NCBI RefSeq assembly: GCF_030684315.1 | Contig: NC_081369.1 | Span: 10,020,035-10,084,034, forward strand | Direction of reading: 5' to 3' | DNA from: Stegostoma tigrinum | Taxonomy: Eukaryota | DNA length: 64,000 nt | Shown here: positions 1 to 60,125 of the stretch, in pieces | Numbering within the stretch: position 1 is the first letter of the stretch | Layout: each line of letters starts with the position of its first letter | Position numbers and translations under genes: made by a program | Notes under the pieces: generated by a model | Seen by the model: only the letters and a program-made list of their open reading frames with translations | Databases searched by the model: none | What the model was told of the DNA's origin: nothing

Positions 1-202
1 TTGAGACTCATCAGAAAAATTTAAATTGCTATTTGTTTCATATGAAAATAATTTGTAATTCACAGCAGGCTTGTATATTCTCCAGTTACATGTGCAAGAT
101 TCTTAATTGTCTTTTTTGGTATTTTATTATTCCTTGCTGTACATTGATTTTTTTTCTGACGTATGCAACTTTTCTCACAGTTCTGCTTTTATTTTCTCAT
201 AG

Positions 203-507
203 CCACTGAAGTAACTTCAAACGAAGTAGATCAGTTTTCCAAACTCTTGAAGACCACTGGTGGTAATAATGTTTCCATGTTTTTCACATTTCCCATATTT
301 GAAGATGCTCCTGAAGTATTTTGGTGGAATGCAGTGCAGAATTGTTTCTGGAACTCGACAGCAGATATCTGTTTGATGGACAGAAAGCAAGGAGATCACT
401 TCATGTTCTCAATATCACTGTTGCAGACTCCGGAATATATTATTGTAATACAAAGCTTCAGTAAACTAATAACGGAGCTAGGAGTGGATTGCTGTTGAAT
501 GTGTGTG
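203..507 (+). pseudogene. Ig V-set (VJ-type) pseudo-exon of receptor paralogue 1
   Basis: Acceptor ttctgcttttattttctcatag ends at 202. Phase-1 frame reads VDQFSKLLKTTGGNNVSMF(F)TFPIFEDAPEVFWW, then after a frameshift FLELDSRYLFDGQKARRSLHVLNITVADSGIYYCNTKLQ*TNNGARSGLLLNV. DSGIYYC and the C-strand Trp are present, the B-strand Cys is Phe, there is one stop, and the donor is degraded (G|TTAAG). Confidence 0.85.
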
Positions 508-2349
508 TTAAGTTTCATGGTACTGGGGATAGGAACATTTCCAGTGTGTGAAACAAATAAAATTTGAGCATTATAACGAGAACAAAACCTCTTCGTAGCG
601 AATTGACTAAACACTGGCCGGGTTTAAATCGATTTGATGTGCAAGATCCATTGATTCTCTCCTCGTTTGAGACAATTGCAATCATTATTGAGACAAGATA
701 GTCAAACATGGCCACCAGTTAAAACCCAGACTGAGATTAAGTAACGGGAGAAGATGAACAACTTCCTCGATAATCATAACATTCGAACAGTAATAGCATC
801 TTCGAGATAATGAATTCTATGAAAGTTTAACTGAATTCATTTCACCACAAATAAGTGACTTATTGCGAACTCAGGATCGAAATCTCCTGCTACAGCCTTG
901 GAGACTTCATCAAACAGCTTGCATTTCAATCCACTGTTTTGAGTTGCCAATCCACAATTCTTCTTTTCGCGAAGTTGACTACAACTTCAATCACGTTAAG
1001 TTTTTTTTTATCATTCACATTACGACAGTAGAATTATGTCAAACAAGTAGAACTGAGCATAGATCAACTATGATTTAAATGATTGTCAGGGCACGTTCGA
1101 AGGGGCGAATGGACTATTCTGGCTCCCAGTTTTGAGCATTATACAGTACAGGTGTATCCATTGATTAAATGTTTGCGATAACAAACTAAAGAAATCCTAC
1201 CGACTTTATGCAATCCTGCAAACCACCCAGGGGACAGGTGTTGATATTGATGTCAATGCTGGTTTGCAAACATCGTCCTGAACATGCAATATTTTGGTTA
1301 TGAACATTGCTCGTTTCTGTGAATTTCTGCCGTCGATCAGTTGGGTTATGTTTTTTCATATACTCATAAATGTATTGTCCTTTGCAAATAAGCTCTCACG
1401 CTGCATTTCTCTGAATGCATTGTTTTGGGAATTATAATTCATAATATTCACTCGTAGTCCCAAACCTCATACAAACGATACAAGTCACTTCAGTATATTA
1501 TGCTCATTCGTGGACAATCAATTGCATAACATGAGAAAGCTAAAACAGATCAATGGTTAAGAAATATAATAATTAACTGAGGGATCAATCCAACCCAAGA
1601 GTTTCAATGCAGATTGAACCAGCACAGTACTTACACGAAAATTTAAATTGTTTAATTGCTGAATAACATGGCGGGCAGGTCAGAAAGGCTGAAGGAACAC
1701 GGGGGTGGTTAAAACGTTGAAAACAAAGAAAACATGCAATATAAGTTTTAATTTACAATTCAATATGCCTTCTATTTATGAATGCATCCAATTATACAAC
1801 AGCCAGAGACATGTCTTGGATAACTGCAAATTGTCTCAAGTTTTGCGGAGTGATTATCTCTTCTAGGCGGACTGATATTTTCCCCCAACACTCTTTGCTT
1901 CAATTGCTGTCTGAACACTCGCAGCCAGATTCACCCTTAAATCCTTCTCACTTTAACAAAGGCCACTACCCGAGCGACTGGCCAATCGCCAGATGCTGGA
2001 ATTCACCGGCATCTCGTGCACTGTATTTGAAATGATGCTCCGCTCCTGGGAAAGAGCTGTCAGTCCAGAGCAGCCCTGCACAGTTCCTTAATATTTGCCA
2101 CATACATGGCAGGCAGAGGAAAATCTGACACATTTCTGCCTGTGCGGCCTGCAGCTCTCACTGAATCGGCAAGCTCACAAGCAGAATTAACTCCATTCCA
2201 CGGCAAGCAGTGAAGACCATGTTACCAGGTCATGTGAGTATGGTCCTAAGTTGTCAATGCTTCTGAAGCAGTGGGTGTCTCTCTATAAGCACAAAATGTC
2301 TTTGCAGTATCAATAAACTAGTATTCGCCAATGCAGTCTTAGGTTCAGC

Positions 2350-3672: not shown

Positions 3673-3953
3673 ATCCCCAAGCAAGTTGAAATTATTCCCT
3701 TTGAAAGATTCTCAGTGGCTTCTCCACAACTCGAGTGTGGAATGAACGGGGATGTAGGAATCGCCTGACCGAGGAATGGAGTCCAATGTTTGGCCGGGAT
3801 AGAAACTGTGAAAAACAGGCGGTGGATGGGCTTTATGAAGTGGCCGTTCCTTGGAAGAAGCATACCCCGTGCAGAGTGGTGTAATTTATACCCACCAGGC
3901 ATCTCATGTCTGTTTTAATGTGCCTACCAATGTTAGCTACATCATCGGTAATG
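3673..3953 (+). pseudogene. Ig C1-set pseudo-exon of paralogue 1
   Basis: Acceptor ttttctttcatag and donor G|GTAAG. Across frameshifts it reads SPSKLKIIPFERFSVASPQLEC...GIA*PRNGVQCLAGIETVKN...DGLYEV..SLEEAYPVQSGVIYTHQASHVCFNVPTNVSYIIG, collinear with the C1 exon at 16167-16487. Confidence 0.8.
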
Positions 3954-13133: not shown

Positions 13134-13315
13134 CTAAATTGTTATGGCTTGCCATTTCTTGCTTGTTTGGATATCTTCTTTTACAGATTTTCGTCTTCCG
13201 ACCTTCAGCGAGGCTTACTGTGTGCCCCCTTTGGGATTCTGGTGCATCTCTGATTTCACCGATTTCGTCAAAGTTACTGTAGCATATGTCACCTGATCAC
13301 TGATCACTGTGAAAC
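13134..13315 (-). pseudogene. receptor 2 exon 7, terminal cytoplasmic exon (ITIM + ITSM-like)
   Basis: Acceptor tgttgcctttgcag. Reads FTVISDQVTYATVTLTKSVKSEMHQNPKGGTQ*ASLKVGRRKSVKEDIQTSKKWQAITI*. VTYATV fits the ITIM consensus. TAA at 13215-13217 sits where the Tyr of TxYxxL is expected. Confidence 0.7.
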
Positions 13316-13499
13316 CTGCAAAGGCAACATTTGGACATATTTTTAACGTGTCTGTTTACAAATTTCCTGAAAAGTGGTCATCAGAAGGACAAACACATAA
13401 CTTTTCATATCTCATATGGCTAATGTCAAGAGGTAAAAGACGTCATTCACAGCCTCAATGGCGATTTTGTCCTGATAAACTTAATTCGTCGTCTGTTAC

Positions 13500-13620
13500 T
13501 CAGCCGTACCTCAGAGTACATGTTTCTCTCTACTTCGAATGTATGTCTTGAAGCTCTTTTGTCTCTGCTAAATCCTACGACAGCATATTGCACACTCTGA
13601 GCCGCGGCTTCTTGCGAGGA
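13500..13620 (-). pseudogene. receptor 2 exon 6, cytoplasmic (ITIM + ITSM-like)
   Basis: Acceptor attttgtttccag, phase 0. Reads SSQEAAAQSVQYAVVGFSRDKRASRHTFEVERNMYSEVRL, with VQYAVV (ITIM) and NMYSEV (ITSM-like). Donor position is uncertain by ~15 nt. Confidence 0.72.
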
Positions 13621-14113
13621 CTGGAAACAAAATATTTCATTCGGCACTTCCTTCATGTCATCAACAATTCGTTCAACCACTTAAAAAATGGAGGTTCGAG
13701 ATTGTTTGTAGAATCGACGTTTCAGACGTATTTGTGTGAATACAAATATTAACTTAACGGTGGTCAAACTAACACTACGTTCATTCACATTCATGCTACA
13801 ACACAATATTTCAACGTCAAAAAGCGTCAACGGTGGCCAGCAAATTTATTTCCAAAATGAGAGAATGACTGAATTTCTATCGAGTTATTAGCTGGAAACA
13901 TTCTTGTAGATAAGACTGTTTTTTTTAAAAAATCCAATTAATCTTCTTTAACGATAAGAACACTGCACCAACTGCAGTTCGAATGTCTTTGGTTGAATAC
14001 GTCCTTCAATATATAAATGTACAATGTTCTGACGTGACCAACATATATTTCTTCTGATATCGTAATCGTTCCTGTCATTGAAAACGCCTATCATGATGTA
14101 ACAATGTACTTAC

Positions 14114-14157
14114 CACCTTGTCACTCCGATCAGGTTGCCTTGTGCATTCTTCTCTAT
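14114..14157 (-). pseudogene. receptor 2 exon 5, short juxtamembrane cytoplasmic exon
   Basis: tgcag|ATAGAGAA...AAGGTG|GTAAGT, 44 nt, phase 1 to 0. Links the TM exon to exon 6 in frame (NREECTRQPDRSDKV). Confidence 0.7.
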
Positions 14158-14339
14158 CTGCATATCAATGAAATATAATTACATTGAGAGACGGAATTAT
14201 TAACCCGGTTTCCATACGGAAAATGAAACGTTACGTTTCCGAATCTAATTCATACACAAATTGTGAAAATGTGCAGTTGAGGCACGACAACGATGATCCC
14301 ATTGCTAGCAGAAGAAGTAAGAGGACCGACAGTCCCTCC

Positions 14340-14680
14340 TTCCACAACCTATTCATCTTCTGACTCACCTATCCGCTCTACCCTTCCCACTGACCAAACA
14401 CCGTAATCCTGTACCTGCATCACCAGTTTCAACCCGAATCTTATCCATCTTCCTGCTCACCTAGCCGCTCCACCTTTCCCACTGACCAACGACAATAACC
14501 CCCTACCTCATCCACCTATCTCCATTTCATCTGCTCTACCGCCAGCCTCGCCCCTCCTATTTATTTCTCTGCTCCACTCCCCCTCCCCAGTTCTGACAGT
14601 GTTTTGGCCAGAAACGTTGACTATCCTGCTGCTGGGATGCTGTTTGACCTGCTGTGTTTTTCCTGCTCCGCAATTTTTGA
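14340..14680 (+). mobile_element. degenerate Penelope-like pLTR
   Basis: C-rich tract followed by ttctgac...gaaacgttgactatcctgctgctgggatgctgtttgacctgctgtg, as in the other pLTRs. Confidence 0.6.
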
Positions 14681-15029
14681 CACCTGCTCCTCATCTTCTA
14701 GTTCTTCAAGGAACAATCATTGCTCGGCAGAAAAATTAAATTGTAAATTTCTCTGTTCGTCATGATAAATTTAAATAGTTGCGTTCGAAGGTGAAATTTG
14801 CTGCTGGAATCTATTACTCCTAAGAATAATTAACATTTTGATCACATATTTGTGAACGTTGTGTTGTGAAATTGGGTTTGGGACAATCTGAGCTCATTGA
14901 TTTTTTTTAAATACCGTTTAATGCTGGAAATGTTTTTGTTTTGTGCCATCACGCTAATCGCCCATCATGTTGCTTATTGTCCTCAGACTGCAACTAGACC
15001 GAAAATCACAAGTTGACGGGAGATCTTAC

Positions 15030-15143
15030 TTTGTTTTCACTGAAGTCCATGCCATTTTCCAATAAAGGACACTAGTACAAGAAATGTCAATCCAACCATC
15101 GCACAAATTGGAGCCCAGGAGAGCAGTGATTTATTGACATTAT
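15030..15143 (-). pseudogene. receptor 2 exon 4, transmembrane
   Basis: ttctgcag|ATAAT...CAAA|GTAAG, 114 nt, phase 1-1. Reads DNVNKSLLSWAPICAMVGLTFLVLVSFIGKWHGLQ*KQ: an uncharged hydrophobic helix with a TGA stop after the TM. Confidence 0.8.
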
Positions 15144-16166
15144 CTGCAGAATTAAGTGGATATTATTTGCCGGTGATCGTAGTTTGTTGTTTAAAGTATG
15201 ATGATGTTTTCAACTGCACAGTGCCGTGAAGGGCAATGAAAAAAATTAAGGTTCACTTGTTATTTCAGTTGAATGTCGAAGTGACTTCTTTTTCCACCAA
15301 ATGATAAGTTCCGAATCAATCTCTGGAATGGATTGTAAATTCGTAGATCACAAAAGACTCTTTTGGAAAGTGGGAATACAAGACAGATCAATTACCGTGG
15401 ATCAAAATACTGTTGTTCTTGACCTTGCTTGCTTATTGACATAAGCGTTCTTGGAATTGCAGGCATGATTTCAGAAGCATTTTTTTTTACCGGTCACATC
15501 AAGTTCTGGACTGTGCAATCGGTCACGAAACGCTTGCAAATAAATGAACTGCTTTTATCACATTCGTTGTATGGGAAAGGACAACTAGAGGCTAGGTGTA
15601 ATAAATTATTATTTTGTGCCATGACAAACAATTAACAAAGTAAGCAAATTGTTAATGCATTAAATCTGACGCGCCGCAGACAAGTGAGCACACAAACTCT
15701 GATACGTGTTAGAGCGAGTCCTGTTGAATGTGTCGTCGACGAGGGAGATACAACATTTCAAAAGGGATAGGTCTGAGAATTCTGCACTGGACTAAACTGA
15801 CAGGGAATGCGGTGGTTGAAGGCAGAGCGAAACCAAGCAAAATAACATAGATCCTGGCAACAATACAGCAAAAGTGCGCACCCGAAAGGGAGTCAACTTT
15901 CTAATACGGAAACAAAAGCAGTGAGCGACGCCCGAAATGACCCAAAGAAAGAAAATTATCGACCACCTCACTTCTGAACATGATTACGGTTTCAGAAATA
16001 AAGAAATTTGAATTCCAATAAGGTTTTGCCGCTTTTGCAACACAAATATCAACTTAATATCCTGAATAAACTGTGCTATTTCCCGCGAAGGTGTTGCGGA
16101 TTAGCTCCATAAAATGCACAAATCGCAGAATGCATCTGCTTACTTATGAAACAGTCGCTAACTCGC

Positions 16167-16487
16167 CTTTTTCGACTCCAGCAAACTTGGAAACAATGTG
16201 GCTGACGACAGCAGGCGTCTTGAGGGAGACATGGGATACCGAATAGGTATATCTTGTTTTATTTGAAGGAGTTTAAAACTCAGCCAAAGAACTGCATGCT
16301 TCAGATAGTCCGTCCCCGTTCTGCACCTTACTAGTATTTATTCCGACTGTAATTTCGGCGCCGTTTTTAAACCAGGCGAGGGTGAATTTTTCCGGATAAA
16401 ATGCAGCTGTTTCACACAGAAGGGTCAAAGAGGCTGGTGGATTTTCTTCGTGTAACTTGGGCGTAATTTTCAGTGGGATTGGGGTCG
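16167..16487 (-). pseudogene. receptor 2 exon 3, Ig C1-set domain
   Basis: 321 nt, phase 1-1. Reads ATPIPLKI...LTLLCETAAFYPEKFTLAWFKNG...QNGDGLSEACSSLAEF*TPSNKTRYTYSVSHVSLKTP, with C1 motifs CxxxxFYP, WxKNG and YxCxVxH. Lesions: stop at 16273-16275, F-strand Cys is Tyr, donor GCGAGT. Confidence 0.9.
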
Positions 16488-17467
16488 CTGGATGAAGAGA
16501 ATGAGCAAAGTCAATGAGTCTGATTTTAGATCGCTCCACTTTATTATAATCACAACATTCAAAAGTAACTTTTCTTGTCCGTTTACTTTTCTGTACACGC
16601 CCCTATTTAACAAAATAAATACCTCGTATATCAGTGGTAATTATTCACTTTTACTTTCTAGTACCAAGTCCAATGCTTGATTTTCCTCAGCAGAAATAAT
16701 AAACAAACTGCTTAGCAATGATTGGATGACATATTTGAATGAATTAATTAAATTGATCCACGGCAGAGGAAGGGACGAAAAAATGTTCTTCGCCCTTTTA
16801 GCTTGTTTTTAAGCTGAAGTGCATAATGACCGCGAAGCTAATGGTCGTTGATTAAATGAAGACCGTTTGATAGGTCAAGTTTCAAAAGCAAGGCATTGCT
16901 AACGAAGTAATACATTAATTCAGTTGAACTTCAACTTCAGTTGAAACAATTCTCTGGATTGTTAGATATAATTAATCGAGTTAAGTGCTTATACTGCGTG
17001 GTAAGATTCAAACTACAATTTTTCATGATGTCGTTCATCTGAAAGTGAATTCACACTGATTTTCAAACAATGATGCATTACGTGGTGATTAATTTTAGAA
17101 ATCTTCAACCTCAGAAAGAGCAATTGGGATAGACAGGACATCGATAGCATATCACTGAATTGAAATCCTGGTTGAAAAGCATTAACATACGCGGTTTGTC
17201 GTCGGGTATATGCATTGGAAATGTACATCTCGTGTATAAGCTGTCTATGGAAATATCGTGGAAATGGTTAATATTTATTAATATTGCATTTATGCTTGTG
17301 ATATTGGTTGTCCAATTGCAAATCTTTCAAGATTACAGAAATATCAATTGTAGCTAACAGCAGAAATGATCAGTCCCGTGAATATTCTGCCAACATTGAT
17401 TAAGTAAACGATCAGAAAATATTTTGCTCTTTCGAAATATTTCAGATTGTGTCGGTCTCTCACTTAC

Positions 17468-17788
17468 CATGGACGAATAGTTGGGACCCGGTTCCATTTC
17501 TTTGACCTATTCCTTGATAAATCACTGTGCAGTGATAAACTCCAGAATCGTGGACACGAATGCTCACCAAGCTGAAGAAAGCTGATGTTTCATTTTCAAA
17601 ACCAAATCGTCTTCTGCCAATGGCATTCATCTGAACGCATTCATTTCCAACCTGCTTGCACCAAGTTACCTTTGGCTTTGAATGATGCTGAGAGATGGAG
17701 AATGGGCAGTAGAATGTAATATCGTCCCATCTGTTCACTGTTACTTCTTTGGGCGTTTGTATAACACTGATGGAATTGTGGTCTCCCG
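17468..17788 (-). pseudogene. receptor 2 exon 2, intact VJ-type Ig V domain
   Basis: Acceptor gtgtttctgacag and donor G|GTAAGT, 321 nt open frame. Reads SVIQTPKEVTV..ITFYC..KVTW..DSGVYHCTV..NGTGSQLFVH, with both canonical Cys, the Trp and a J-like GxG(T/S)xLxV G strand. Confidence 0.92.
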
Positions 17789-17954
17789 CTGTCAGAAACA
17801 CGGTAAATTACAGGCAACTGTCGTATACAGAATAAAGATAGAAGAGTTAGGTATTTAACCAGATGGAGGAATTAAGATTCTTTACATGAATAAGAGGCTG
17901 CATCAAAAACCTCAAATTTATTAGACCATTTCTATCAATAAAGTCAGCAAGTAC

Positions 17955-18009
17955 CTGACAGAATAAACTTAAGCACAATCAGACAAAGGCAATCCATCTT
18001 CCGTGACAT
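17955..18009 (-). pseudogene. receptor 2 exon 1, signal peptide
   Basis: ATG at 18009 gives MSRKMDCLCLIVLKFILS + G|GTAC, 55 nt, phase 1, matching the V exon. Confidence 0.7.
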
Positions 18010-44689: not shown

Positions 44690-44920
44690 ATTATGAAAAA
44701 CAGCAGGAGAGTTCTCCATGAAGTTCTGACAAATATTTACCCCTCAATGAAAATTGCTAAATCTGGCTGTAGTCACTGCCATTTTTAGAAGCTGCTGTGC
44801 ACAGATAGGTTGCAAAATTTTCCTACATTATAATAGTCAATTCCACTAAAAATCACGTCATTGATTGTAAAGGGCTACAGGGCATCCAGAGATCATAAAC
44901 TTATTTAATTACAAAGTTAC
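44690..44920 (+). mobile_element. Deu-domain-type SINE fragment
   Basis: aatatttacccctcaa...gctgtgcacagataggttgc...cctacattataatagt...cattgattgtaaag. Confidence 0.55.
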
Positions 44921-44965
44921 TACTTTTTCTTCACTGATTTGAAATTCAATAAACATACAGCATAC

Positions 44966-45024
44966 CTCCTCATCTTCTTCCTTAGCGATATATGAAGTAA
45001 CACCACCAAATTCCTCATTCCAGC
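44966..45024 (-). CDS. OGFOD1: OGFOD1 exon
   Basis: 59 nt, AG/GT, GWNEEFGGVTSYIAKEEDEE. Confidence 0.95.
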
Positions 45025-45094
45025 CTGAAACAAAGAAAAAGATGCATGGTGACCTTCCTAATCAGCTTCCTTTTTGATACCTTGTTTACCTCCA

Positions 45095-46205
45095 AGGACA
45101 TAGGAAGAAGCATCGAACCTGCCACACCATTCAATAAAATGACAGTGAATCAAATATTTCAGTACCTCTTACCATTCCATCCCTATGGGTAATTAGAAAT
45201 CGAAGGAACCCTATGTTAAACATGCTCAAACACTGAGCTTCCACAATGATCTGTGGTAAAGAATTCCAAAGATTCACAGTTCTTTGGGTCCACATCTTGG
45301 ACCCAAGTAGCATTCCTCTTTTTTTAAAATCGTGCTTACTGGTTCTGAACTCCCCAGCCAAATGAAACATCTTAACTGCATCTACCTTGTCCATTTGTTT
45401 AAGTATTTTGTAGGCTTCAATGAGATCATCGCTTGTTCTGCAAAACACTTGAGAATATAGACCCATCTTGACCAATCCTTCTTCACAGGACAGTTCTTTC
45501 CTGTGAACAACTGACCTTTTGTTGCATTCCCTCTGTGGCAATGATACGTCTCCTGGCATATGGAGACCAAACATTGTTGGAGTCTCACCAAGCTCCTCCA
45601 GAATTGAAGCAAGACTTCATTACTCCCATATACAAACTGTCTTTGCAAGCTTGGCTAACATTCTATTAGTCTTCCTAACAGATTGCTGCAGCTCCAAGTT
45701 AGCCTTCGGTAATTTACGGACAGGATACCTTGATCCCGTTGTATGTCTACACCTTCCAACCTTTTACCATTTAAATGACACTGTAAATCTGTCTCTCCAA
45801 CCAAAGTGGATAACCTCACATTTTTCCACATTATATTCCACCTGCCATTGTCTTGCCCATTCACTAAACCTATCCAAGTCCTCTTGTAGCTGATTTACAT
45901 CTTCTTCACAACACACATTCCCTCTTAGTTTTGTATCCGCCCCAAATTGGGAAATATTACATTTGGTCCTAACCTCCAAATCATTAATACATGAGAACAG
46001 CTGATTCAAGTCCTGACCCTTGTTGTACTTACAAGTCACAGCATGCCATTGCAAGAATGATTCATTAATTCTGATTCTGTTTTCTGCCTGTTAATCAGTT
46101 TCTAATCCAGGCGGGTCCATTAGCTCCAAAGTCATTCTGAAAATCTATGTATACTATGTCCACCAACTCTCCTTTATCCATTTTGTTAGTAACATCTTCA
46201 AAAAC
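45095..46205 (-). mobile_element. old CR1-type LINE fragment
   Basis: INDLE..FGADTKL..WQVEYNVEKCEVIHFG, and DLIEAYKILK. Confidence 0.85.
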
Positions 46206-46356
46206 AAAACGACAACATTGAACCAATCCTATGTAAGAAATAATTTTATGTCATTGAGAGAGACAGAGAAATTGGCTGTCCCAGTCATCTGTGTTACAGT
46301 GAGCACCAACTATCCTAAAAAGGTACCACAGCATTTCTAGCTAAGAGACCTCACAG

Positions 46357-46816
46357 AAGTAGAACAGAACATAGAACAGTACAGCACAGGCACTTCAGCC
46401 CACCGTGTTGTGCCAACCTATTATCTACTCTAAGATCAAACTAAACTGCCTACTCTTCATTTTACTATCACCCATCCAATCCTATCCAAGAGTGGCTTAA
46501 ATGTCCCTAATGTATCCAACTCTACCACAACTACTGACAGTGCATTTCCTCCACGCACCACTATCTGTGTAAAGAACCTACCTCTTTAAACTCCCCTATA
46601 TCTTCCTCCAATCATGTTAAAATTATGCCCACTCGTGATAGTCTTTTCCGCCATGGGAAAATTGTCTCTGGCTATCCACTCTATCCATGCCCCTCACCAT
46701 CTTGTACACCTTTATCAAGTCACCTCTCATCCTTCTTCGTTCCAATGAGAAAAGACCTAGCTCCCTCACCTTTGCTCATAACACCTGCCCTCCATTCCAG
46801 GCATCATCCTGGTAAA
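46357..46816 (-). mobile_element. CR1 3' end, split by a younger CR1 (continues 49477-49530)
   Basis: (agaacat)-type tail. atcctggtaaa resumes as aaatctcctgtgc...ccttcctgtaatgagg after the insertion. Confidence 0.82.
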
Positions 46817-49476
46817 CGGCACTAAATGACATAGGGTCAGAAGATGTGGAGTCTGTGTGGGTGGAATTCAGGAACCACAAAGGCAAATAAACTATAATGG
46901 GAGTTATGTACAGACCTCCTAACAGTGATCAGGACCAGGGGCACAAGATGCACCGAGAAATAAGTAGGGCATGTCAGAAAGGCAAGGTCACGGTGATCAT
47001 GGGGGACTCAATACGCAGGTGGATTGGGTGAATAATGTTGCTGGTGGATCCAAAGAAACAGAATTCATGGAATGTTTGCAGGATGGCTTTTTTGGAACAG
47101 CTTGTGATGAAGCCCACAGGGGAGCAGGCTATTCTGGACTTAGTGCTATGTAATGAGCCAGACTTTATAAAAGACCTTAAAGTAAGGGAACACTTGGGAG
47201 GCAGCGATCATAATATGGTAGAGTTCAGTCTGCAGTTTGAAAGAGAGAAGGCAAAATCGGATGTAATGGTGTTACAGTTAAATAAAGGTAATTACAGGGG
47301 CATGAGAGAGAAATTGACGAAAATCGACTGGAAGCAGAGCCGAGAGGGGAAAACAGTAGAGCAACAATGGCAGGAGTTTCTGGGTGTAATTGAGGACACA
47401 GTACAGAGGTTCATCCCACAGAAAAGAAAGATTATCCGGGGTGGGATTAGACAGCCATGGCTGACAAAGGAAGTCAGGAACTATATCAAAGAAAAAGTGA
47501 CAGTCTATAAAGTGGCCAAGCGCACTGGGAAATCAGAAGATTGGGAAGGCTACAAAAACAGACAGAGGATAACAAAGAGAGCAATAAGGAAGGAGAGGAT
47601 CAAATATGAAGGTAGGCTAGCTAGTAATATTAGAAATGATAGTAAAAGTTTCTTTCAATACATAAGAAACAAACAAAAAGCAAAAGTAGATGTTGGGCCG
47701 CTCCAAATTGATGCTGGAAGGCTAGTGATGGGAGATAAGGAAATAGCTGAAGAACTTAAGTACTTTGCGTCAGTCTTCACTGTGGAAGACATGAGTAGTA
47801 TGCCAACAATTAGGGAGAGCCAGGGGGCAGAGTTGAGTACGGTAGGCATTACAAAAGAGAAAATGCTAGAAAAGCTAAAAGGTCTAAAAATTGATAAATC
47901 TCCTGGCCCCGATGGGCTATATCCTAGAGTTCTGAGGGAGGTGGCTGAGGAAATAGCGGAGGCTTTGGTTGTGATCTTTCAAAAGTCACTGGAGTCAGGG
48001 AAAGTCCCAGATGATTGGAAAATTGCTGTTGTAACTCCCTTGTTTAAGAAAGGATCAAGGCAAAAGATGGAAAATTATAGGCCGATTAGCCTAACCTCGG
48101 TAGTTGGTAAAATTCTAGAATCCATTGTCAAGAATGAGATTTCTAAATTCCTGGAAGTGCAGGCTCAGATTAAAACAAGTCAGCATGGTTTTAGTAAGGG
48201 GAGGTCATGCCTGACAAACCTGTTAGAATTCTTTGAAGAGGTAACAAGTATGTTAGACCAGGGAAACCCAGTAGACGTTATCTATCTAGACTTGCAAAAG
48301 GCCTTTGATACAGTGCCTCACGGGAGGCTGCTGAGCAAGGTGAGGGCCCATGGTGTTCAAGGTGAGCTACTGGCTTGAATTGAGGATTGGCAGTCTGACA
48401 GAAGGCAGAGAGTTGGGATAAAAGGCTCTTTTTCAGAATGGCAACCGGTAACGAGTGGTGTCCCGCAGGGTTCAGTGTTGGGGCCACAGCTGTTCACCTT
48501 ATATATTAATGATCTGGACGAAGTGACATTCTGGCGAAATTTGCCGATGATACAAAGATAGGTGGACAGGCAGGTAGTACTGAGGAGGTGGGGAAGCTGC
48601 AGAAAGATTTAGACAGTATAGGAGAGTGGTCCAGGAAATGGCTGATGAAATTCAATGTGAGTAAATGTGAGGTTTTGCACTTTGGAAAAAAGAATACCGG
48701 CATGGACTATTTTCTAAACGGTGAGAAAATTCACAAATCAGAAGTGCAAAGGGATCTGGGAGCGTTGGTCCAGGATTCTCTAAAGGTTAACTTGCAGGTA
48801 GAGTCCGTAATTAAGAAAGCGAATGTAATGTTGTCGTTTAGCTCAAGAGGTTTGAAATATTAAAGCAGCGATGTGCTTCTGAGGCTTTATAAGGCTCTAG
48901 TTAGGCCCCATTTAGAATACTGTCCAATTTTGGGCCCCACACCTCAGGAAGGACATACTAGCCCTGGAGCCTGTCCAGCGGAGATTCACACGGATGATCC
49001 CTGGAATAGTAGGTTTAACGTATGATGAACGGCTAAGGATCCTGGGATTGTACTCATTAGAGTTTAGAAGGTTGAGGGGAGATCTAATAGAAACTTACAA
49101 GATAATGTATGGTTTAGAAGGGGTGGACGCTAGGAAGTTGTTTCCGCTAGGTGGGGAGACTAGGACCCGTGGGCACAGCCTTAAAATTAGAGGGGGTAAA
49201 TTTAAAACTGAAATGAGACGACATTTCTTCAGCCAGAGAGTGGTGGGCTTGTGGAATTCATTGCTGCAGAGTGCAGTGGAGGCCGTGACGTTGGATGCCT
49301 TCAAGGCAGAGATCGACAAATTCTTGATCTCAGAAGGAATCAAGGGCTATGGGGAGAGTGCAGGGAAGTGGTGTTGAAATGCCCATTGGCCATGATTTAA
49401 ATGGCGGAGTGGACTTGATGCGCCAAATGGCCTTACTTCCACTCCTATGTCTTATGGTCTTACGGTCTTATGGTCT
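46817..49476 (+). mobile_element. young 5'-truncated CR1 LINE (APE endonuclease C-part + RT)
   Basis: [53 protein letters not shown], with few stops or frameshifts and a (tatggtct)n tail. Confidence 0.96.
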
Positions 49477-49585
49477 TAAATCTCCTGTGCAGCCGCTATA
49501 GCTTCCATATCCTTCCTGTAATGAGGTGACGTAATTCTGAAGTAATCACAGAGTAAATCATACCTGGCAGCAGAAGAAATGTGTT

Positions 49586-50032
49586 TGTAGCATAACCAAG
49601 AAGGCACAGCATTCCAGAAGAGACAATGTGTGTGAATTTAGAGAAATTAAGTTTTAATTTATTGTTGTCTTATTAATTAGGTATATATCAGTGGGACTTG
49701 TGTTTGTTTGAACAGCACACGACTAGAATTGTGTTTTCTTCGGGATTAGGTCAGTTAAAAGAACAATTAGCATTTTGGGAAGAATTGTTCGGTTTGATAG
49801 TAATTCTAGTTGTTCACTGTTAGTGCTAGATGAAATAAATTGTTAATTTTACTCAAAGTCAAGATCAGGCGTTTTCTTTCTTTAACCAATCTTTAGATTA
49901 CAAGGGGAAAGGCTTCTCTCTGTGTTTTGGGGGTAATTATTCAAAGGGAACCTCCACTCCCATCATAAAACAGATTGGGGCTTATGTTTTGGTCTAATTA
50001 TCAGAGGGGCTGAGCTAATCCTTCTCTGTAAC
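49586..50032 (+). mobile_element. possible LTR-retroelement remnant
   Basis: TGT...ACA termini and a PBS-like ttgggggct after an internal LTR-end-like string. No coding sequence. Confidence 0.25.
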
Positions 50033-51595
50033 ACTATTCTTGAGTATTAGCCTTTAAATTCTTTGACTGTGCAGGGAACGTCAGCGAAATGTAGTGGATG
50101 TAGGCAAGAATTTCAGTCTTGAATGAATTGTATGCCTGCTGTTAATCTTAACAAAACAGTGTGAATTGTAATGTTTTAAAGTTAGTGGCAATTGATGCAG
50201 ATTGGACTCTTTTCGTCTTTGCGCACAGCCAATAACTATTGTCAAGGGAGGTAACCTGCCAAAAATATCTGGTAGTCTTATTCCGCAAGGACAAATGATT
50301 GCCTTGTAGAAAGTTGTGTTTTTCAAACACAGACAATGCCAAATGTGACAAGGAACAGGGAAGCTACTTCTGATAAGACGAGAAGCTGCACACTGGTGGC
50401 TTGAATAGTAGTCAACATTGAGGATAAAAGGATCTGAAGGATTGTCAAGATGTCACACCATAAACTTGAAGAGCAGAAAATACTATAAAAATACAACTCC
50501 AGGATTCTTCAGCAGCAAAACTCCAGGGAACAACACCACATACGACTGAACCCTGGATATATCCAGAGACAAATGTGGTTGGTTGGAATTTTAGCTAAAT
50601 TCCACCATTATTTGGATATTAGCCAATTGGGTTGTAAAGATGAATTTGCTCACTTGAGGGATCTTATTTTGGTTGCGACCTGCAATAAAATTGAATGTGT
50701 TTCAATATTAGATTGTCTGTAAAATTTCTTAACAAATAGCCAAATTAATTAGTTTGTGGTAATTTACCCACAATATCAATCTGTTAAAAGTCTTTCACTC
50801 CACAGATCAAATTGACATTTTTTTTGCGTTTTGTTTCAGATTTTCAGTGTGTGTTTTTTAATACAATCGTACAATCAGTTGTCCTTCCATCAATTCTTTA
50901 GTGATGAAGGCCATTTCACCCATTTTCATTCATCTTTACAGAGATGCTAAATTACTCCTGATTCAGCATTCAATTCTTTCATAAATGATTCTAAAGTTTT
51001 CAACTCCAATTGTCCATGACATATATTGTTTACTCTGTATAAAGGAAGTTTTCCTGACATCAGTCCTAAATTTACGCTATGTCTATTTTTCATGCAATGA
51101 TTGGTTCTTTGATTGTGAAACAGTAAGAATGATAATTACATAAAATATACTGCTAGAAAGAATGGCCAACACCAACAATCTGCTATACTCTCCCTTCCAT
51201 CAAGTCATCAGTATTATTCAGCACATATTCAGTATGGGGTACATTGATGAGGGCTTCTGATTCAACACAGGTTCACTATGCTAACTAAGAAAGGGAATAT
51301 ATACAAATGCATCTCGCAAAAGTTTTCACACAGTAACAATTAATCAGTCGCATGCAATCCAAGATAAATATGCAGTTTAGAGCAAATGAAAATGCAACTC
51401 ATCAGAATGAGTCCACTGAAACATTAAATCGACATGGATCAGCAAGACCTCAACAAAAGTGGAATAAATTATTGTTTTTTTTTATCCTGTATTTCGATTT
51501 ATCTTTTTTGCCTCTCACATTGACAAGATGTTTCTTCACAAATCAACAAGAGAGTTAGTAATGGATTTTGGGAGAATGAAACCATCAGTTCCTAC

Positions 51596-51724
51596 CATCA
51601 CATCCACAGTACAACAGTAAATCAAGAGCAAACTCTGAATTTTCCACATTTGTATCATGGATAAGTGTGTAGTATCCATTTCTCCAATATCGTAATTCCC
51701 CTCGGCAAACAGGAACACTGGGAT
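51596..51724 (-). CDS. OGFOD1: OGFOD1 exon
   Basis: 129 nt, phase 1-1, [42 protein letters not shown]. Confidence 0.95.
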
Positions 51725-51741
51725 CTGAAAAGGACAAACAC

Positions 51742-51825
51742 GGCTTAGATTAGTTCACAGGTCGGCGCAACATCGAGGGCCAAAAGGCCTGTTCTGTGCT
51801 GTATTGTTCTATGTTCTATGTTCTA
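51742..51825 (+). mobile_element. ~85-bp CR1 3' terminus abutting an OGFOD1 splice acceptor
   Basis: ggtcggcgcaacatcgagggccaaaaggcctgttctgtgctgtattg(ttctatg)n matches the 3' end of the CR1 at 35581-35660. Confidence 0.88.
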
Positions 51826-52963
51826 TACATCAAGTTCCTTCACAAGTTTTAATTCTTTGTTTCTAAGATAGTGAAAAACCATACATTAATTTGACTTAGA
51901 GATAACAAGGTGTAGAGCTGGATGAACACAGCAGGCCAAGCAGCATCATAGGAGCAGGAAGGCTGATGTTTCAGGCTAGGCCTTTACCATGTTTTGTATG
52001 TTTAGTTTCCCTATGCACCCCAAGTCCTCCTTCCCCTGCCTGCCCTAAACAGACAACGAAACGTGGCCAAAGAACATGGCTTTCTCACAGATACAGACTC
52101 CCAAGATGTTGCTAGGCTATTAAAACCATGTGATATTCCCAGCTGCTCAACATCATGATTGATTTTATCTTGGTAGGTTCTCACCAGCATCTGGACACCT
52201 CTGACACTATTATCTTTCCTCATCAGCTCCCTTTTTGATGCCTTCCGTTTTCCTCCTCAGAATATAGGAGGAGGAGCAGGCCATTCAGGCCACTGAGCCA
52301 GCCATTCACACTGTCTGCAAATTGAGATCAAACCAAGTGTACGTAATCTCAAAGTGTCACTAATTCTCACTTCTGTCAGAGGCCACCACCAAAGAATGCA
52401 AAGGCTGTTTAAAACTTATTTCATTGTCTGCAAGCAACACTGGCAAGGCCAATATTTGATCTGTAATTACCTTTGAGAATCAGGAGGTGAGCCACCTTCC
52501 TGAACTGGCGCAATCCATCCAGTGTAACTACACCCACAATGCTATTAGAAAGACTTCCAGGAACGGTGTCAGATACATAAGTCAGTGGTGACTAACACAG
52601 GGCATGAATGGAAAATTACTGTTGTGCCCATTTTTGTCTGCTTCCTGAAAGACAGGTCAGCTTAACATTTTCCTCAATGTCCAGAACAGCCTCACCAGCT
52701 TTATAAACACCTGCATACAGGTCTAAGGACTGATCTTTACCATTCGATGCTGCACCAAGACGTGGCATTTAGGTCACTGGAACACCTTATCAAATGTATA
52801 CTAAACCATCCAGTGTCACATTCAGACTTCGACTTGCGCAAGCAGAAATTTAATTTGATGATTTTATTAATGTCATTTACAAATGGCTTCATATTTTAAT
52901 TGTGATCCTCTAATATCAATCATTCACCCAGTAGATTTTAGAACGTTTTTCAGTGAAGCTTAC

Positions 52964-53271
52964 TTTTGGAACTCTCCGCCAGAACATCAATTTCCTTCGG
53001 CTTCGCCTTTTCTCCTTCATCTTTCCCACCTTTACATTCTGTTGAATCACATTTGCATCTTTTCTCAGTGCTGGAACATGCGTGCGCATGGTTGTCATGC
53101 TCCTTCACATCACCCTCCTGCTCATCTGCATCATTATCGGAAGCTGCGAGGAAATGCAGTTTTAAGCCAGTAAAATTGGACAGAAGCAGGAACATGGCCT
53201 CAGAACAGAACAGCTCCATACACTTGGCCAGAATGTCAGGGAGGCCATCTTCCTCTGCTTGATCATAGCAT
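52964..53271 (-). CDS. OGFOD1: OGFOD1 exon
   Basis: 308 nt, phase 2-1, [42 protein letters not shown] followed by a variable acidic linker. Confidence 0.95.
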
Positions 53272-53336
53272 CTGTAAAACAAAGAGGTAATACCACAGTA
53301 CGTGTCATATACAGAACCAGATAGCAATATTTCAAT

Positions 53337-53498
53337 AGAGATAATGGGAACTGCAGATGCTGGAGAATCCAAGAAAACATATGTGAAGCTGGATGAACAC
53401 AGCAGGGCAATAAAGGGTCTAGGCCCGAAACGTCAGCTTTTGTGCTGCTGAGATGCCGCTTGGCCTGTTGTGTTCATCCAGCTTCACACTTTGTTATC
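53337..53498. mobile_element. short palindromic Penelope-derived element
   Basis: Same family as 32504. 15-bp TSD tagca(a/g)tatttcaat. The CTGATGA half of the hammerhead is lost. Confidence 0.82.
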
Positions 53499-53814
53499 TA
53501 GCAGTATTTCAATGCGAAGTTTGTCATTTATTTTAGTAGTACAGTGGTATCTTTCATTATTCTGAGATCAGTAACACACCTCAGTATTGTTCAGGCTTCT
53601 CATAATACCTATGCATAAAAAGATCTGGTTACGTAATTCAACATTAGAAGGACATTTCATTTACATCAGGGCAGAGATGCAAGCTGAGGCTAAGCTTTCA
53701 GTTCAAATTCAATGAAAATGGGCAGAAATTAATGGACAGACCATGCACATGTCAGATGATGGCAAACAAAGAGGCAGAATCAGGAGACAGAGAGAAAGGG
53801 GAAGACTTTCTCCA

Positions 53815-54095
53815 CAGCCAGGTTCAAGATGAGGGGCCACAGGTTTAGGGGAGATGTGAGGAAAACCGTTTTTACCCAGAGGTTGACGATGATCAGGAAC
53901 ACGCTGCCTGGGAAGGATGCAGAGGCAAATTGGCTCACACCCTTTACAAAGCACCTGGATGAGCACTTGGCACATCGAAGCATTCAAGGCTATGGGCCGA
54001 GTGCTGATAAATGAAATTAAGTTGAAGGTCAGGTGTTTCTCACTTGTCAATGCTGACTCAATGGCCAAAGGGCCTCTTCTGCAGAATGTGATTCC
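53815..54095 (+). mobile_element. CR1 3' fragment
   Basis: RGHRFRGDVRKTVFTQR...FTKHLDEHL...QGYGPSA. Confidence 0.75.
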
Positions 54096-54829
54096 ATGAG
54101 CCCAAAGGGAGCAAGTCCAAGGTCAAAACTGGAAGCTTAATTTTCACAGAGATCAATGTGATTCTTCTCTGTTTCACAAATAATCCAGAATACCACATTG
54201 TCATAACAGACCAAATGGAAAGATAAAAGGTTTCTCAATCATGATATGAACAACTATGCAGTAATAGGATTTTTCTTTTAAAAGACACACGGAGAGATAT
54301 ATCTAATTTCCCCAGGACAACCCAGTTGTGTAAGCAAATGCTTGAGCCTTCTTCCCATCAGATCTGTTAATGATACAAAATAATTCAGAGCAAGGTAGTG
54401 TGTAACAACAACAACATCATAAAAATAGTGCTCAATTGTACATCTATGTAGAACTCCTCACTCATACTGTGGTGAGGAATGAAAGGATCAAAAGCAAGCC
54501 CATCATTCAATATTACAAATCTGCCAGCAAGGCCTGTGAATCTCATTTACTTTACATGTGTAAAAAAAAAGTTTGATATTGAAATTACATAAACGTTTAA
54601 TGCTTTAGTACTTACATACTGTCATGCAAACAATAATGTTTTGCTCTCTCTTGTTCCAGGTTTGGATCACCAGGGTTTGTTAGTGAAGTGAAAGGTTGCA
54701 GAAATTTACCGTTGCATCTGCTCCACCGACACTTTTTCTCAACATGAACTACTGGTTAACTGGGCCTTCGATCACTTTACAGCTCTAAATTCATTAGTGC
54801 TAATGCTCTCAGACTTTTGATTCACTCAC

Positions 54830-54909
54830 CTCTTGTTGGCAGGTCCTCTTCTCTTCCACTTAATCTGTGAGCTTTGCAAAGCCTCACAAACCATCTGAAA
54901 CTTTTCTTT
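54830..54909 (-). CDS. OGFOD1: OGFOD1 exon
   Basis: 80 nt, KEKFQMVCEALQSSQIKWKRRGPANKR, donor GTGAGT. Confidence 0.95.
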
Positions 54910-56175
54910 CTGCATAAGTGGAGGAAAATGCAGCTGTTACAGGGTGCCGACATGGTCATGGCAGTTCAAATGTATGGTGCGTTACTGTAGAAAATAAACT
55001 ATTTACTCCATTGAATAGCACAGCAAGGAGGTCATGTGGTACTATGTTTAGAGTCACTGCCCCTAAGACAGAAGTTTCAGATTCAAAAGATCCACTCTAG
55101 GACTCGATGGCCACTGAAGCTAAGTTCATAATGGAGACAACAAGTTGAACAGCAGCTTGTTAATTCTTGTAATACACACTAATTGCAAACAGTAAAACAA
55201 TAATGACATTTCTGGCCAGGCATTTGATCCGAAGAAATTTGATCCTCCACAACCGTTATCCATTGGTCCTGGGTTCAATATGCATGTAAAGGTATATTTT
55301 GTCACAGCAACTCTTTGAGGGCCAGGTGGCTAGCCACTCAGTGTGGATTCAGAACCTGCCTCCTTACTCTCCCATAAAGGAGGCTGTGGCAACACCGTGA
55401 CACAGCCTCCTTTTTGACACAAAGCTGAAACAACAAGTGTGTGGTTCATATCTATGGTACCGACTGAATATAGTTCATTAGCAGGAGATATTTTGGGTCA
55501 TTCTATGATCATGAAAGGTTCCGTGTAAATGCAAATTCTTTCTAAATAAACTGATGTACAGAAGCAGAAAAACAGGCAAGATCACAACCAGCACATTTAA
55601 TAATTTGCAACTCTGACTCTATGGTGGCAATTTAAAGAATGACAACTGTTTGTTGAGCTTCTTACCAAATTGACACCGCAACAGTCCCTTTGTCAGGTCT
55701 TATTCCTATAACTGATCTGAACACATTACTTTTCACATTTTTCACGCTATCAAATAATCAGTTCTATGGTGCAAGAATATGTATTGCAACAATAGAATAC
55801 ATTTCACGAGTGTTTCTTCAATTTCTCTGAAAATGTACCAAGATAATCTGGCTGAGGCAAAAATTGCTTTAAATACCTTAGCTACGCTGTGCAATTCCGT
55901 AAAGTTGAAAGACGTTTGCTTACTCTAAAATCATACCATACAGCTTCAAATCATAATACCGACAAATAAACCCAATAGTCTGTCAGTGGGTGTTCATGCT
56001 TAGCTTGAACAAAAGAATCCTCCTGCATTCGGTTCAACAACTCTGGGATAAGACTCTTCTCCCTTCAGTATCATGTTTACTACAGCCTTCTTGACGGGAC
56101 AGTTAGTTTCCAAATGCCAGATAGTCTTCCGTATCTGTATTCTTATCAAATGTTGGCACTGAAATTGGAGAAGTT

Positions 56176-56485
56176 TATTAGATTCCCTACAGTGTGGAAA
56201 CAGGCCCTTCGGCCCCACAGGTCCACACCACCCCTTGAAGCATCCAACCCAGACCCATCCCCCTATCACCCACACACCCCTGAACACTATGGGCAATTTA
56301 GCATGGCCGATCCACCTAGCCTTTCATCTTTGGACTGTGGGAGGAAACCGGAGCACCCGGAGGAAACCCACGCAGGCACGGGGAGAATGTGCAAACTCCA
56401 CACAGACAGTCGCCCGAGGCTAGAATCGAACCCGGGTCCCGGGCACCGTGAGGCTGCAGTGCTAACCACTGAGCCACCGTGCCCC
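56176..56485 (-). mobile_element. full-length HE1/V-SINE-like tRNA-derived SINE
   Basis: A-box GGCTCAGTGG, B-box GGTTCGATTC, V-domain and CR1-like tail ccacactgtagggaatc. Confidence 0.92.
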
Positions 56486-56736
56486 ACTAAAAACATCCTC
56501 ACCTTCCCGTCTGGAGATGATTACTTTAAATTAAACTATGACATCTATACAGGACAAACATTATTAAAAAAAAATGAAAACAACTCAACACCTCTTACTT
56601 ATACCTGAACAAAGAAATTAATTCACCTCAGTACAAACATCACTAAAACACGTCCATTTTCCTATCCAGGCTGCACGAATATTTTTTAATGAGTTCTTGT
56701 TTTATAAAAAAATTCAATCCTGGACTGAATTTTCAC

Positions 56737-56850
56737 CTTTAAAAAATTCTTTAGAAGGATCTCTGATTCTTCCTCAAACTCCTCCTGGATGTGGGCTTGA
56801 GTTGAAACACTGAGGTAAATTGGATTGATCCAGTCATAAAGATTTTTTTC
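56737..56850 (-). CDS. OGFOD1: OGFOD1 exon
   Basis: 114 nt, [38 protein letters not shown]. Confidence 0.96.
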
Positions 56851-56979
56851 CTGAAACACAATAAAAAGAAGCACTTCTTAAAACCTAATACTTTGACGAT
56901 CAGTTATGTTATGTGTCCTAACAGTGTATTGTAATGCTCCTGAGAAGCCTCTTGGCATTTTTATAATGTTAAACGTAAG

Positions 56980-57255
56980 GAACAGCACAGTGGGTCAGCA
57001 GTTAGCACTGCTGCTTCACAGTGCTAGAGTCCTGGGTTCAACTCCACCCTTGGGCAACTGTCTGCGTGGAGTTTTCTCATTCTCCCCATATCTGCATGGG
57101 TTTCCTCCAGGTTTTCCAGAGATGTGCAGGTTAGGTAGATTGGCCATGGGAAATGCAGGGTTTGAGACAGGCAGACCTGGGTAGGATGCTCTTCAGATGG
57201 GGTCAACCCAGACTCAATGGGCCAAATAGCCTGCTTCCAGAGTGTAGGGATTCTA
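56980..57255 (+). mobile_element. HE1/V-SINE-like SINE, older copy
   Basis: Inverted homologue of 56176-56485. Confidence 0.85.
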
Positions 57256-57485
57256 TCATTTTAACATGATATCCCAGAATAAAATGTTGCTGTTGGTGCT
57301 CTTTCTGCACCATAACAGCCTACTTGTGAGATGTTCCAGAGCTTTTCACAAATTAATAAGACACTCATACGAGATCACAGTGCAAGTGTTTTAATTATTG
57401 AATAATGAGATCATTTCTTGTTATTGATAAATGTTTCAAAGATTTCTCGTAATTGAAGTCTGGCATTGCACTAGGTTGTAACCAG

Positions 57486-58839
57486 TGATAATGGGAACTG
57501 CAGGTGCCGGAGAATCCAAGATAACAAAGTGTGAAGCTAGATAAACACAGCAGGCCAAGCAGCATCTTAGGAGCACAAACGCTGATGTTTCGGGCATAGG
57601 CCCTTCTTCAGAGAGGGGGATGGGGAGAGGGAACTCGAATAAATAGGGAGAGAGGGGGAGGCGGACTGAAGATGGAGAGAAAAGAAGATAGGTAGAGAGG
57701 AGATTATAGGTGAGTTCAGAGGTAGGGAGGGGACAGGTCAGTCCAGGGAAGACGGACAGGTCAAGGAGGCAGGATGAGGTGGTAGGTAGGAAATGGAGGT
57801 GCGGCTTGAGGTGGGAGGAAGGGATGGGTGAGAGGAAGAACAGGTTAGGGAAGCGGAGATAGGCTTAGACAGATTTTTCCATCCCCACCTTTGTCTGCCT
57901 TCCGGAGAGACCACTCTCTCCACGACTCCCTTGTCTGCTCCACACTCCCCTCCAACCCCACCACTCCCGGCACCTTCCCCTGCAACCGCAGGAAATGCTA
58001 CACTTGCCCCCACACCTACTCCCTCAGCCCCATCCCAGGCCCCAAGATGACTTTCCATATCAAGCAGATGTTCACCTGCACATCTGCCAATGTGGTATAT
58101 TGTATCCACTGTACCCGGTGTGGCTTCCTCTACATTGGGGAAACCAAGCGGAGGCTTGGGGACCGCTTTGCAGAACACCTCCGCTCAGTTCGCAACAAAC
58201 TACTGCACCTCCCAGTCGCAAACCATTTTAACTCCCCCCTCCCATTCCCCAGACGACATGTCCATTATGGGCCTCCTGCAGTGCCACAATGATGCCACCC
58301 GAAGGTTGCCAGAGCAGCAACTCATATTCTGCTTGGGAACCCTGCAGCCCAATGGTATCAATGTGGACTTCACAAGCTTCAAAATCACCCCTTCCCCCAC
58401 TGCATCCCCAAACCAGCCCAGTTCTTCACCACCCCCCACTGTATCCCAAAACCAGCCCAGCTCGTCCCCACCCCAACTGCATCCCAAAACCAGCCCAGCC
58501 TGTCTCCGCTTCCCTAACCTGTTCTTCCTCTCACCTATCCCTTCCTCCCACCTCAAGCCGCACCTCCATTTCCTACCTACCACCTCATCCTGCCTCCTTG
58601 ACCTGTCCGTCTTCCCTGGACTGACCTATCCCCTCCCTACCTCCTCACCTATACTCTCCTCTCTACCTATCTTCTTTTCTCTCCATCTTCGGTCCGCCTC
58701 CCCCTCTCTCCCTATTTATTCGAGTTCCCTCTCCCCAGCTCCCTCTCTGAAGAAGGGTCTAGGCCCGAAACGTCAGCGTTTGTGCTCCTGAGATGCTACT
58801 TAGCCTGCTGTGTTGATCCAGCTCCACACTTTGTTATCT
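57486..58839 (+). mobile_element. Penelope-like element: inverted 5' pLTR + GIY-YIG + pLTR
   Basis: NVVYCIHCTRCGFLYIGETKRRLGDRFAEH. Hammerhead motif CTGAAGA..GAAACGTC at ~58747-58774. 14-bp TSD taggttgtaaccag at 57472-57485 and 58840-58853. Confidence 0.93.
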
Positions 58840-59996: not shown

Positions 59997-60125
59997 ATCA
60001 CTTGCAACATGTGGATATCGATTAGAAAGAGGTTCAATGTAACGAGCTGGCCTCTCCAACGATGGGCCATGGAACCAGCCACTAACAGAGAGGCGACACT
60101 TCTGCTCCGACAGAACTTCAGATAC
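59997..60125 (-). CDS. OGFOD1: OGFOD1 exon (2OG-binding Arg region)
   Basis: 129 nt, VSEVLSEQKCRLSVSGWFHGPSLERPARYIEPLSNRYPHVASD. Confidence 0.96.

Follow-up and report, generated by a model that had tools for sequence, protein, structure and literature searches.

The window analysed here, a stretch of 64,000 nucleotides of the Stegostoma tigrinum genome (NC_081369.1, positions 10,020,035 to 10,084,034 of the forward strand), contains on its minus strand a receptor gene of the immunoglobulin (Ig) type. Its seven exons, between 18009 and 13134, encode a leader, a V domain with a joined J-like strand (VJ), a single C1-set domain, a transmembrane (TM) segment and a tail with immunoreceptor tyrosine-based inhibition and switch motifs (ITIM and ITSM) (Table 1). 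The copy in the window is a pseudogene and, when intact, was likely an inhibitory member of its family.

Exon chain and lesions of the window copy

This gene layout had been proposed by a sequence-only reading of the window, and it is supported by Pfam domain matches, by collinearity with paralogues and by the exon chain of a RefSeq model. Since the gene is collinear with two paralogues, L021 and L028, over each of its seven exons (64-84%) and six introns (70-74%), and the RefSeq model XP_059507523.1 (P0008) has the very exon chain that we reconstructed for L028, the chain in the window is not due to chance. Conservation against these paralogues separates exons from introns only modestly, with V and C1 at 77-80% and the leader, TM and last exon no better conserved than the introns.

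The V exon is open and has both cysteines, and the J-like strand NGTGSQLFV ends the exon itself without an intervening intron, as the earlier reading had stated. The second Trp of a WW motif of the family, present at that column in 43 of the 49 aligned members, is replaced by Cys in the window copy. BTLA, the top match in the PDB search, was rejected as the closest relative, as this match was due to the Trp-to-Cys change and was gone when an intact paralogue served as query.

The exons had also been said to join with compatible phases, which is true of the chain but not of all its splice sites: the C1 donor is GC, in the window copy as in seven of the eight closest paralogues (GT in L021), and the acceptors of exons 6 and 7 that are needed for the proposed frame are not ancestral. 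The ancestral AG acceptor of exon 6 has become AA, and a cryptic in-frame AG 9 nt upstream (13622-13621) is not conserved. Exon 7 is 4 nt shorter near its acceptor than in the paralogues, so that use of the conserved acceptor leads to a frameshift and the frame of the motifs is kept only via an AG 23 nt further on. The TAG at 13134 lies past the stop codon of the paralogues, which aligns to TCT at 13187-13185.

With three stops in frame, a C1 cysteine and a splice acceptor gone, and a frameshift, the window copy is dead, in agreement with the view that it was disrupted, and in itself it is an ordinary pseudogene. Its ratio of nonsynonymous to synonymous substitution rates (dN/dS) against the paralogues is 0.41-0.71, at a dS of 0.3-0.5, close to the 0.29-0.58 observed among distant intact paralogues, and the copy may thus have been functional for much of its history and have died later.

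Table 1. Features of the window discussed in the text (position 1 is the first nucleotide of the window).
Feature	Position	Strand	Remarks
Exon 1, leader	17955..18009	-	55 nt, phase 1, GT donor; length and donor identical in L022 and L024-L028
Exon 2, V domain with joined J-like G strand (NGTGSQLFV)	17468..17788	-	321 nt; Pfam V-set, E 1e-8
Exon 3, C1-set domain	16167..16487	-	321 nt; Pfam C1-set, E 3e-7; GC donor
Exon 4, uncharged TM segment	15030..15143	-	114 nt
Exon 5, cytoplasmic linker	14114..14157	-	44 nt; 73-84% to L021/L028
Exon 6, phase 0-0, ITIM (VQYAVV) and first part of ITSM-like motif (NMYSE)	13510..13611	-	102 nt
Exon 7, ITIM (VTYATV) and dead fourth motif	13134..13315	-	last exon, starts at 13315
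Lesion, in-frame TAA in C1	16273..16275	-	
Lesion, second C1 cysteine to Tyr	16243..16245	-	Cys in 49/49 aligned members
Lesion, in-frame TGA in TM exon	15039-15037	-	
Lesion, TAA replacing fourth tyrosine (exon 7)	13217-13215	-	
Second family member (L040/L108 subfamily), frameshifted V exon	187..513	+	77-79% to L040/L108; family V hidden Markov model matches
Second family member, broken C1 exon	3750..3941	+	72-74% to L040/L109 C1
OGFOD1 exons, unrelated gene enclosed by the cluster	44915..60080	-	exon near 53273-53052 matches PDB 4nhx, E 3e-16

A probable paired-receptor family of cartilaginous fishes

Of 73 scored candidates in the genome search with the V exon, 28 matched, all on contig C19, and of 138 scored with the C1 exon 45 matched, 43 of them on C19; both counts are lower bounds. 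The C1 matches on C19 fall at 2.1-3.0 Mb and 9.18-10.26 Mb, with one further V at 13.68 Mb. The two fragments near the start of the window belong to another, more distant and more decayed family member of a different subfamily. Between 9.22 and 9.61 Mb the contig consists of periodic repeat units of ~78 kb with one family gene each, three of which are >99.8% identical.

Full reconstruction was limited to the eight closest paralogues (L021-L028). In all eight the reading frame stays open across these seven exons, with AG and GT/GC splice sites, confirming the expectation that intact relatives sharing the exon chain lie nearby. A single C1 exon is found in the window copy and in each of the eight, and a relative from the databases, P0020, has a duplicated C1. 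Two paralogues have ITIM/ITSM-type tails, with four tyrosine motifs in L021 and three in L028, and intact inhibitory members such as L021 combine an uncharged TM with a tyrosine-bearing tail of ~100 residues. In the remaining six (L022-L027) the outer end of the TM holds an Arg and ITIMs are absent, and in three of them the V protein is exactly identical to that of an inhibitory copy. Identity between inhibitory L028 and Arg-TM L025 is 96.7% over the 3.0 kb up to and including C1 and drops to 66-71% beyond it, with a V dN of 0 and identical V proteins. Near-identical ectodomains are therefore carried by inhibitory L028 and by the charged-TM copies L024-L027, which is the layout of paired receptors. 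The description as an inhibitory receptor family was supported, but it had missed the Arg-TM members without ITIMs.

A search of 1.84 billion database representatives gave at least 150 matches, and in a first tree one clade took in 54 of 62 rows. The 13 clade members looked up by name were all chondrichthyans, three of them Callorhinchus, as were all six matches of a separate look-up. The named relatives are thus from sharks, rays and a chimaera; the names cover this part of the clade, so that bony-vertebrate members are possible. Among 84 proteins passing the family C1 profile, 56 have a TM and 28 do not; of the former, 24 have at least two ITIM/ITSM-type motifs, six have one, 19 have none and seven were flagged for an Arg in the TM, class counts that are rough as many models are truncated. 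By eye, a distinct Arg-TM type with short tails is common to six of the 56. Two ITIM-ITSM pairs are present in the tails of L021 and of many relatives, with the tyrosines spaced 22-23/14/23 in the relatives as against 24-25/17/26 in amniote SIRP-alpha. Exon 6, with phase 0-0 and one motif pair, would permit the tails with five to six tyrosines seen in some members.

Members of the family are already in the databases, for instance as the chondrichthyan RefSeq models XP_059507523.1, XP_067853518.1 and XP_007902824.2, hidden under misleading automatic names. Many are called SIRP-alpha-like and others MHC II, tapasin, IgL or NCR3LG1-like, all of which are best-hit labels only; the candidate relationship with MHC class II beta was rejected, as it rests on the best match of C1 only. 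No paper describing the family came up in our literature search, which did not take in Ohta 2019, Fu 2019, Flajnik 2023 or Dornburg and Yoder 2022, any of which could describe it. The family is real and apparently unnamed, and the proposal of a poorly characterised shark VJ-C1 inhibitory receptor family is to this extent justified.

We consider it probable that the window copy is a pseudogene in a large paired-receptor family of cartilaginous fishes, the intact members of which are leukocyte receptors resembling SIRP and LILR. Their ligand, cell type and signalling we infer from LILR (PMC10679719) and SIRP (PMC5413580). The single V domain would bind a ligand on the cell surface. Where the TM is uncharged and the tail has two ITIM-ITSM pairs, the receptor would recruit SHP-1/SHP-2 and thereby damp the leukocyte. 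Arg-TM members without ITIM would signal through an adaptor with an immunoreceptor tyrosine-based activation motif, for instance FcR-gamma. As has been proposed for SIRP and LILR, an inhibitory receptor would gain activating twins when its leader-V-C1 block is duplicated and exchanged between tail types, which would also keep inhibitory and Arg-TM members matched in their ectodomains. The window copy would be a by-product of this turnover. The family most likely works like SIRP-alpha/beta, a prediction on its mode of action that makes no claim of SIRP identity.

Several observations weigh against this explanation. The Arg-TM copies derive from an inhibitory tail by frameshifts, and they may be genes in decay or decoys. 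Five of the six retain one juxtamembrane Tyr, three of these matching TxYxxI, and the RefSeq models of several stop at the C1 exon (P0001, P0002). Over 10 kb the identity among L025-L027 is 99.8-99.9%, and they could be artefactual duplicates of the assembly. Furthermore, we see no clear positive selection on V, with a dN/dS of 0.4-0.7 for the V of distant paralogues, and the 28 database relatives without a TM reflect that many of these models are truncated.

Descent and chromosomal setting

As outgroups for the trees we used amniote SIRPs, a lungfish SIRP-like protein and Ig, T-cell receptor (TCR), UrIg, NKp30-like and B7-H6-like exons, the latter five taken from this genome or from search matches and labelled by our own identification. 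The trees were built under LG+G4, without a mixture model and without tapasin, NITR, PRARP or TCR V. Here, the family is monophyletic for V (support 100/99), C1 (100/96) and V+C1 (100/99), and it is not nested in SIRP, IgL, TCR, UrIg or NKp30; the separate V and C1 phylogenies proposed by the sequence-only reading thus place it in a clade of its own, outside SIRP and germline-joined IgL. In the V tree it is also separate from the NKp30-like V of C44. Approximately unbiased (AU) tests did not reject grouping the family with SIRP (p 0.12 for V, 0.27-0.32 for C1, 0.38 for V+C1), with NKp30 V (p 0.24) or with V-C1 genes on C14 (p 0.14); they rejected UrIg (p 0.028) and were borderline for IgL (p 0.078, 0.048 for C1, 0.087 for V+C1).

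Some additional genes came to light in this comparison. The C14 genes, two at 31.99-32.14 Mb (L131, L132, L135, L136), have a V with an EIPPP motif in the third complementarity-determining region (CDR3) joined to a C1-set exon, and their C1 is the highest-scoring outgroup on the family C1 profile; this motif is of the CD28H type, in a family the members of which are defined as single-V (PMC11599192). On the family V profile, the top outgroup score (50 bits) is that of the turtle proteins P0125, P0206 and P0207, which have five VJ-like V domains in tandem, a TM similar to that of the family and three tail tyrosines, and are possibly a tetrapod relative of it. A cluster on C11 (L089, 96.14-96.15 Mb) has three tandem V exons in 10 kb, two or more of them ending in a joined J-like sequence, and groups with IgL-sigma-like V; that it is the counterpart of PRARP/VJC1 is a guess. 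L080, on C15 at 76.97-76.98 Mb, is a UrIg-like VJ-C1-C1-C1 gene apart from both the IgNAR contig C55 and the UrIg on C44.

The many RefSeq names of the SIRP-alpha-like kind, the second and fourth places of SIRP-alpha in PDB sequence searches and the lack of a better SIRP candidate in the genome (lizard query, stricter first pass) would suit true SIRP orthologues that were relocated and have V-C1 instead of V-C1-C1. We regard this as unlikely: most members have only one C1, other members carry the remaining automatic names, and the neighbourhood is the wrong one, C19 being of human 16q type and not bearing the markers found on C23 and C5 (see below). Moreover, the SIRP V profile gives a mean of only 26 bits on family V, below NKp30 (50), IgNAR (44) and IgL (41). 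With a SIRP-alpha-like tail, the family appears to have an ectodomain without special affinity to SIRP. The SIRP family has been dated to tetrapods (PMC13262535), and its origin has been stated as unknown (PMC9652883). In the lungfish protein P0137, which has an Arg in its TM, the C1 domains group with the first C1 of SIRP (99/99), which suggests that SIRPs are older than tetrapods.

The cluster encloses OGFOD1, to which we take the window exons at 45022 and 60080 to belong, and beyond it on C19 lie NUDT21 (10.27 Mb), AMFR (10.31-10.35), BBS2 (10.36-10.43) and an Ndr gene (10.46-10.49), a set that corresponds to the human 16q12-21 block. A second OGFOD1 exon, 66% identical, is found on C19 at 9814404-9814562, and positions 20280-39000 of the window show long collinear similarity to L037 (C19 9.78-9.79 Mb), which together point to an ancient segmental duplication of ~260 kb within the cluster. 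The cluster is not on SIRP, MHC (major histocompatibility complex) or Ig/TCR loci, and C19 is distinct from the contigs bearing MHC and Ig. SEP and syntaphilin genes, of the NSFL1C/SNPH type that marks the human SIRP region, lie on C23 and C5. Ndr-family genes occur on C23, C5 and the unplaced C255 as well as on C19, where they are 0.2 Mb away from the cluster, and BRK-domain genes on C19, C23, C5, C334 and C45. As C19, C23 and C5 share Ndr and BRK copies, the cluster segment is paralogous to the chromosome with the SIRP markers. No CD47 match was found genome-wide with either Pfam model, a search that had no positive control.

These shared copies raise the question whether the family is the whole-genome-duplication sister, or ohnologue, of SIRP, which we entertain tentatively and which is compatible with the paired-receptor explanation. 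One VJ-C1 receptor with ITIM/ITSM would have been duplicated, sharks keeping and expanding the 16q-type copy and lobe-finned fishes and tetrapods keeping the chromosome-20-type copy. Besides the SEP and syntaphilin markers on C23 and C5, this would agree with lizard SIRP giving no strong match, and none on C23, in that stricter first pass, with the 200 kb at the SEP gene of C23 being devoid of Ig exons, with the AU result for SIRP and with the two ITIM-ITSM pairs of both groups. However, no unconstrained tree joins SIRP to the family, SIRP V grouping instead with NKp30-like V (91/90), and the profile scores are as low as stated; the tails are not aligned by BLASTP, ITIM-ITSM pairs recur in unrelated receptors and fast-evolving clusters often relocate.

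A wider version, which we think improbable, would see in the family the missing shark sister of SIRP that arose in the vertebrate genome duplications, in the human 16q/20/8q/14q11 segments a second VJ-C1 cradle outside the proto-MHC, and on their ancestral chromosome an inhibitory VJ-C1 self-sensor that predated the recombination-activating genes (RAG) and was kin to the gene they invaded; sharks, rays and chimaeras would then have in the family their main KIR/LILR/SIRP-like system. Human 14q11 (TCR alpha/delta) as the fourth paralogous segment is an assumption on our side. One study derives 14q11 from the MHC paralogue on chromosome 9, and its accessible text does not mention chromosomes 16 and 20 (PMC12227049).

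The J-like strand and comparison with known receptors

The sequence-only reading had pointed out that a germline-joined VJ-C1 is the layout proposed for the pre-RAG ancestor of antigen receptors. Indeed, a single-exon VJ followed by C1 is found, GxG is kept in 46-47 of the 49 aligned members (GxG, Leu and Val in 45-47), the fold matches V-C1 chains of TCR and IgL, and the grouping with IgL is rejected only at the borderline. Yet none of the 49 members has the Phe/Trp that precedes GxG in antigen receptors; Asn occupies the position in 36 and an N-glycan sequon in 33, and from these residues the family V would not be expected to pair as in a Fab. CACAGTG, a heptamer-like sequence, is encoded just after the second V Cys, and a scan of the window from 16000 to 18400 gave no heptamer-nonamer pair of a recombination signal sequence.

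The AlphaFold model of P0002 (predicted local distance difference test score 88) is a V-C1 two-domain chain with an uncertain interdomain angle. The matches listed by Foldseek were all Fab or TCR chains with a TM-score of ~0.4, which does not discriminate, and the ESM Atlas gave generic Ig clusters only. In VIA, the best two-domain match was extended B7-H6 (Z 16.8, root-mean-square deviation 3.5, 193 residues aligned), which shared the top rank with a VNAR domain, Rst and PD-L2, and SIRP was not among the 50 matches listed. With the uncharged TM and inhibitory tail, the B7-H6 match, the rejected grouping with UrIg and a locus off the Ig and MHC contigs, we find it very unlikely that the family represents either a close remnant of the pre-RAG gene or a derived chain of the germline-joined IgL or TCR kind. 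A joined VJ is in any case common to CD79, NITR, SIRP, CD8, NKp30, PRARP and some CD28 members (PMC11599192), and a special link to the pre-RAG ancestor is not supported.

The family itself comprises dozens of probable paired receptors kept since the split of sharks and chimaeras, which are good candidates for self/non-self recognition by leukocytes. It would provide a concrete candidate for the sister of SIRP with a testable position, and the inhibitory/activating pair with identical V would be a ready system for ligand hunting.

Compared with germline-joined IgL and TCR, the family differs in lacking the F/W-G-x-G motif of J and in having a C1 clade of its own; IgL has no TM and TCR a charged TM with a short tail, in contrast to the TM and tail of the inhibitory members. 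NKp30 is a single V without C1 and MHC-linked, unlike the family with its C1. NITRs have a V followed by an I-type second domain. The C1-set second domain of the family sets it apart from them, by description and not by tree. The PRARP/VJC1 genes associated with Fu 2019 and Ohta 2019 are reportedly non-rearranging V-C1 genes with possible ITIM/ITSM. UrIg and UrIg2 share with the family a non-rearranging single-exon VJ followed by C1, also in elasmobranchs, but have at least three C1 domains and MHC or Ig/TCR linkage (PMC12227049). CD28-family members have a single V with a CDR3 proline motif (PMC11599192), whereas the family has a C1 and no PPP/EIP motif. With SIRPs, described as paired decoy receptors (PMC5413580), it shares a joined VJ-like V in one exon, a C1-set domain, clustered paired genes and two ITIM-ITSM pairs at similar spacing, the fourth Tyr being dead in the window copy; it differs in having one C1 and not two, in forming a separate clade with weak cross-profile scores, in its gene neighbourhood and in the Arg near the outer TM end of its putative activating type. 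Finally, ITIM members beside short-tailed Arg-TM members are also seen in LILR/PIR, where an Arg-TM with FcR-gamma as against ITIM is the LILRA/LILRB layout (PMC10679719), built there on C2-type domains and in the family on VJ and C1.

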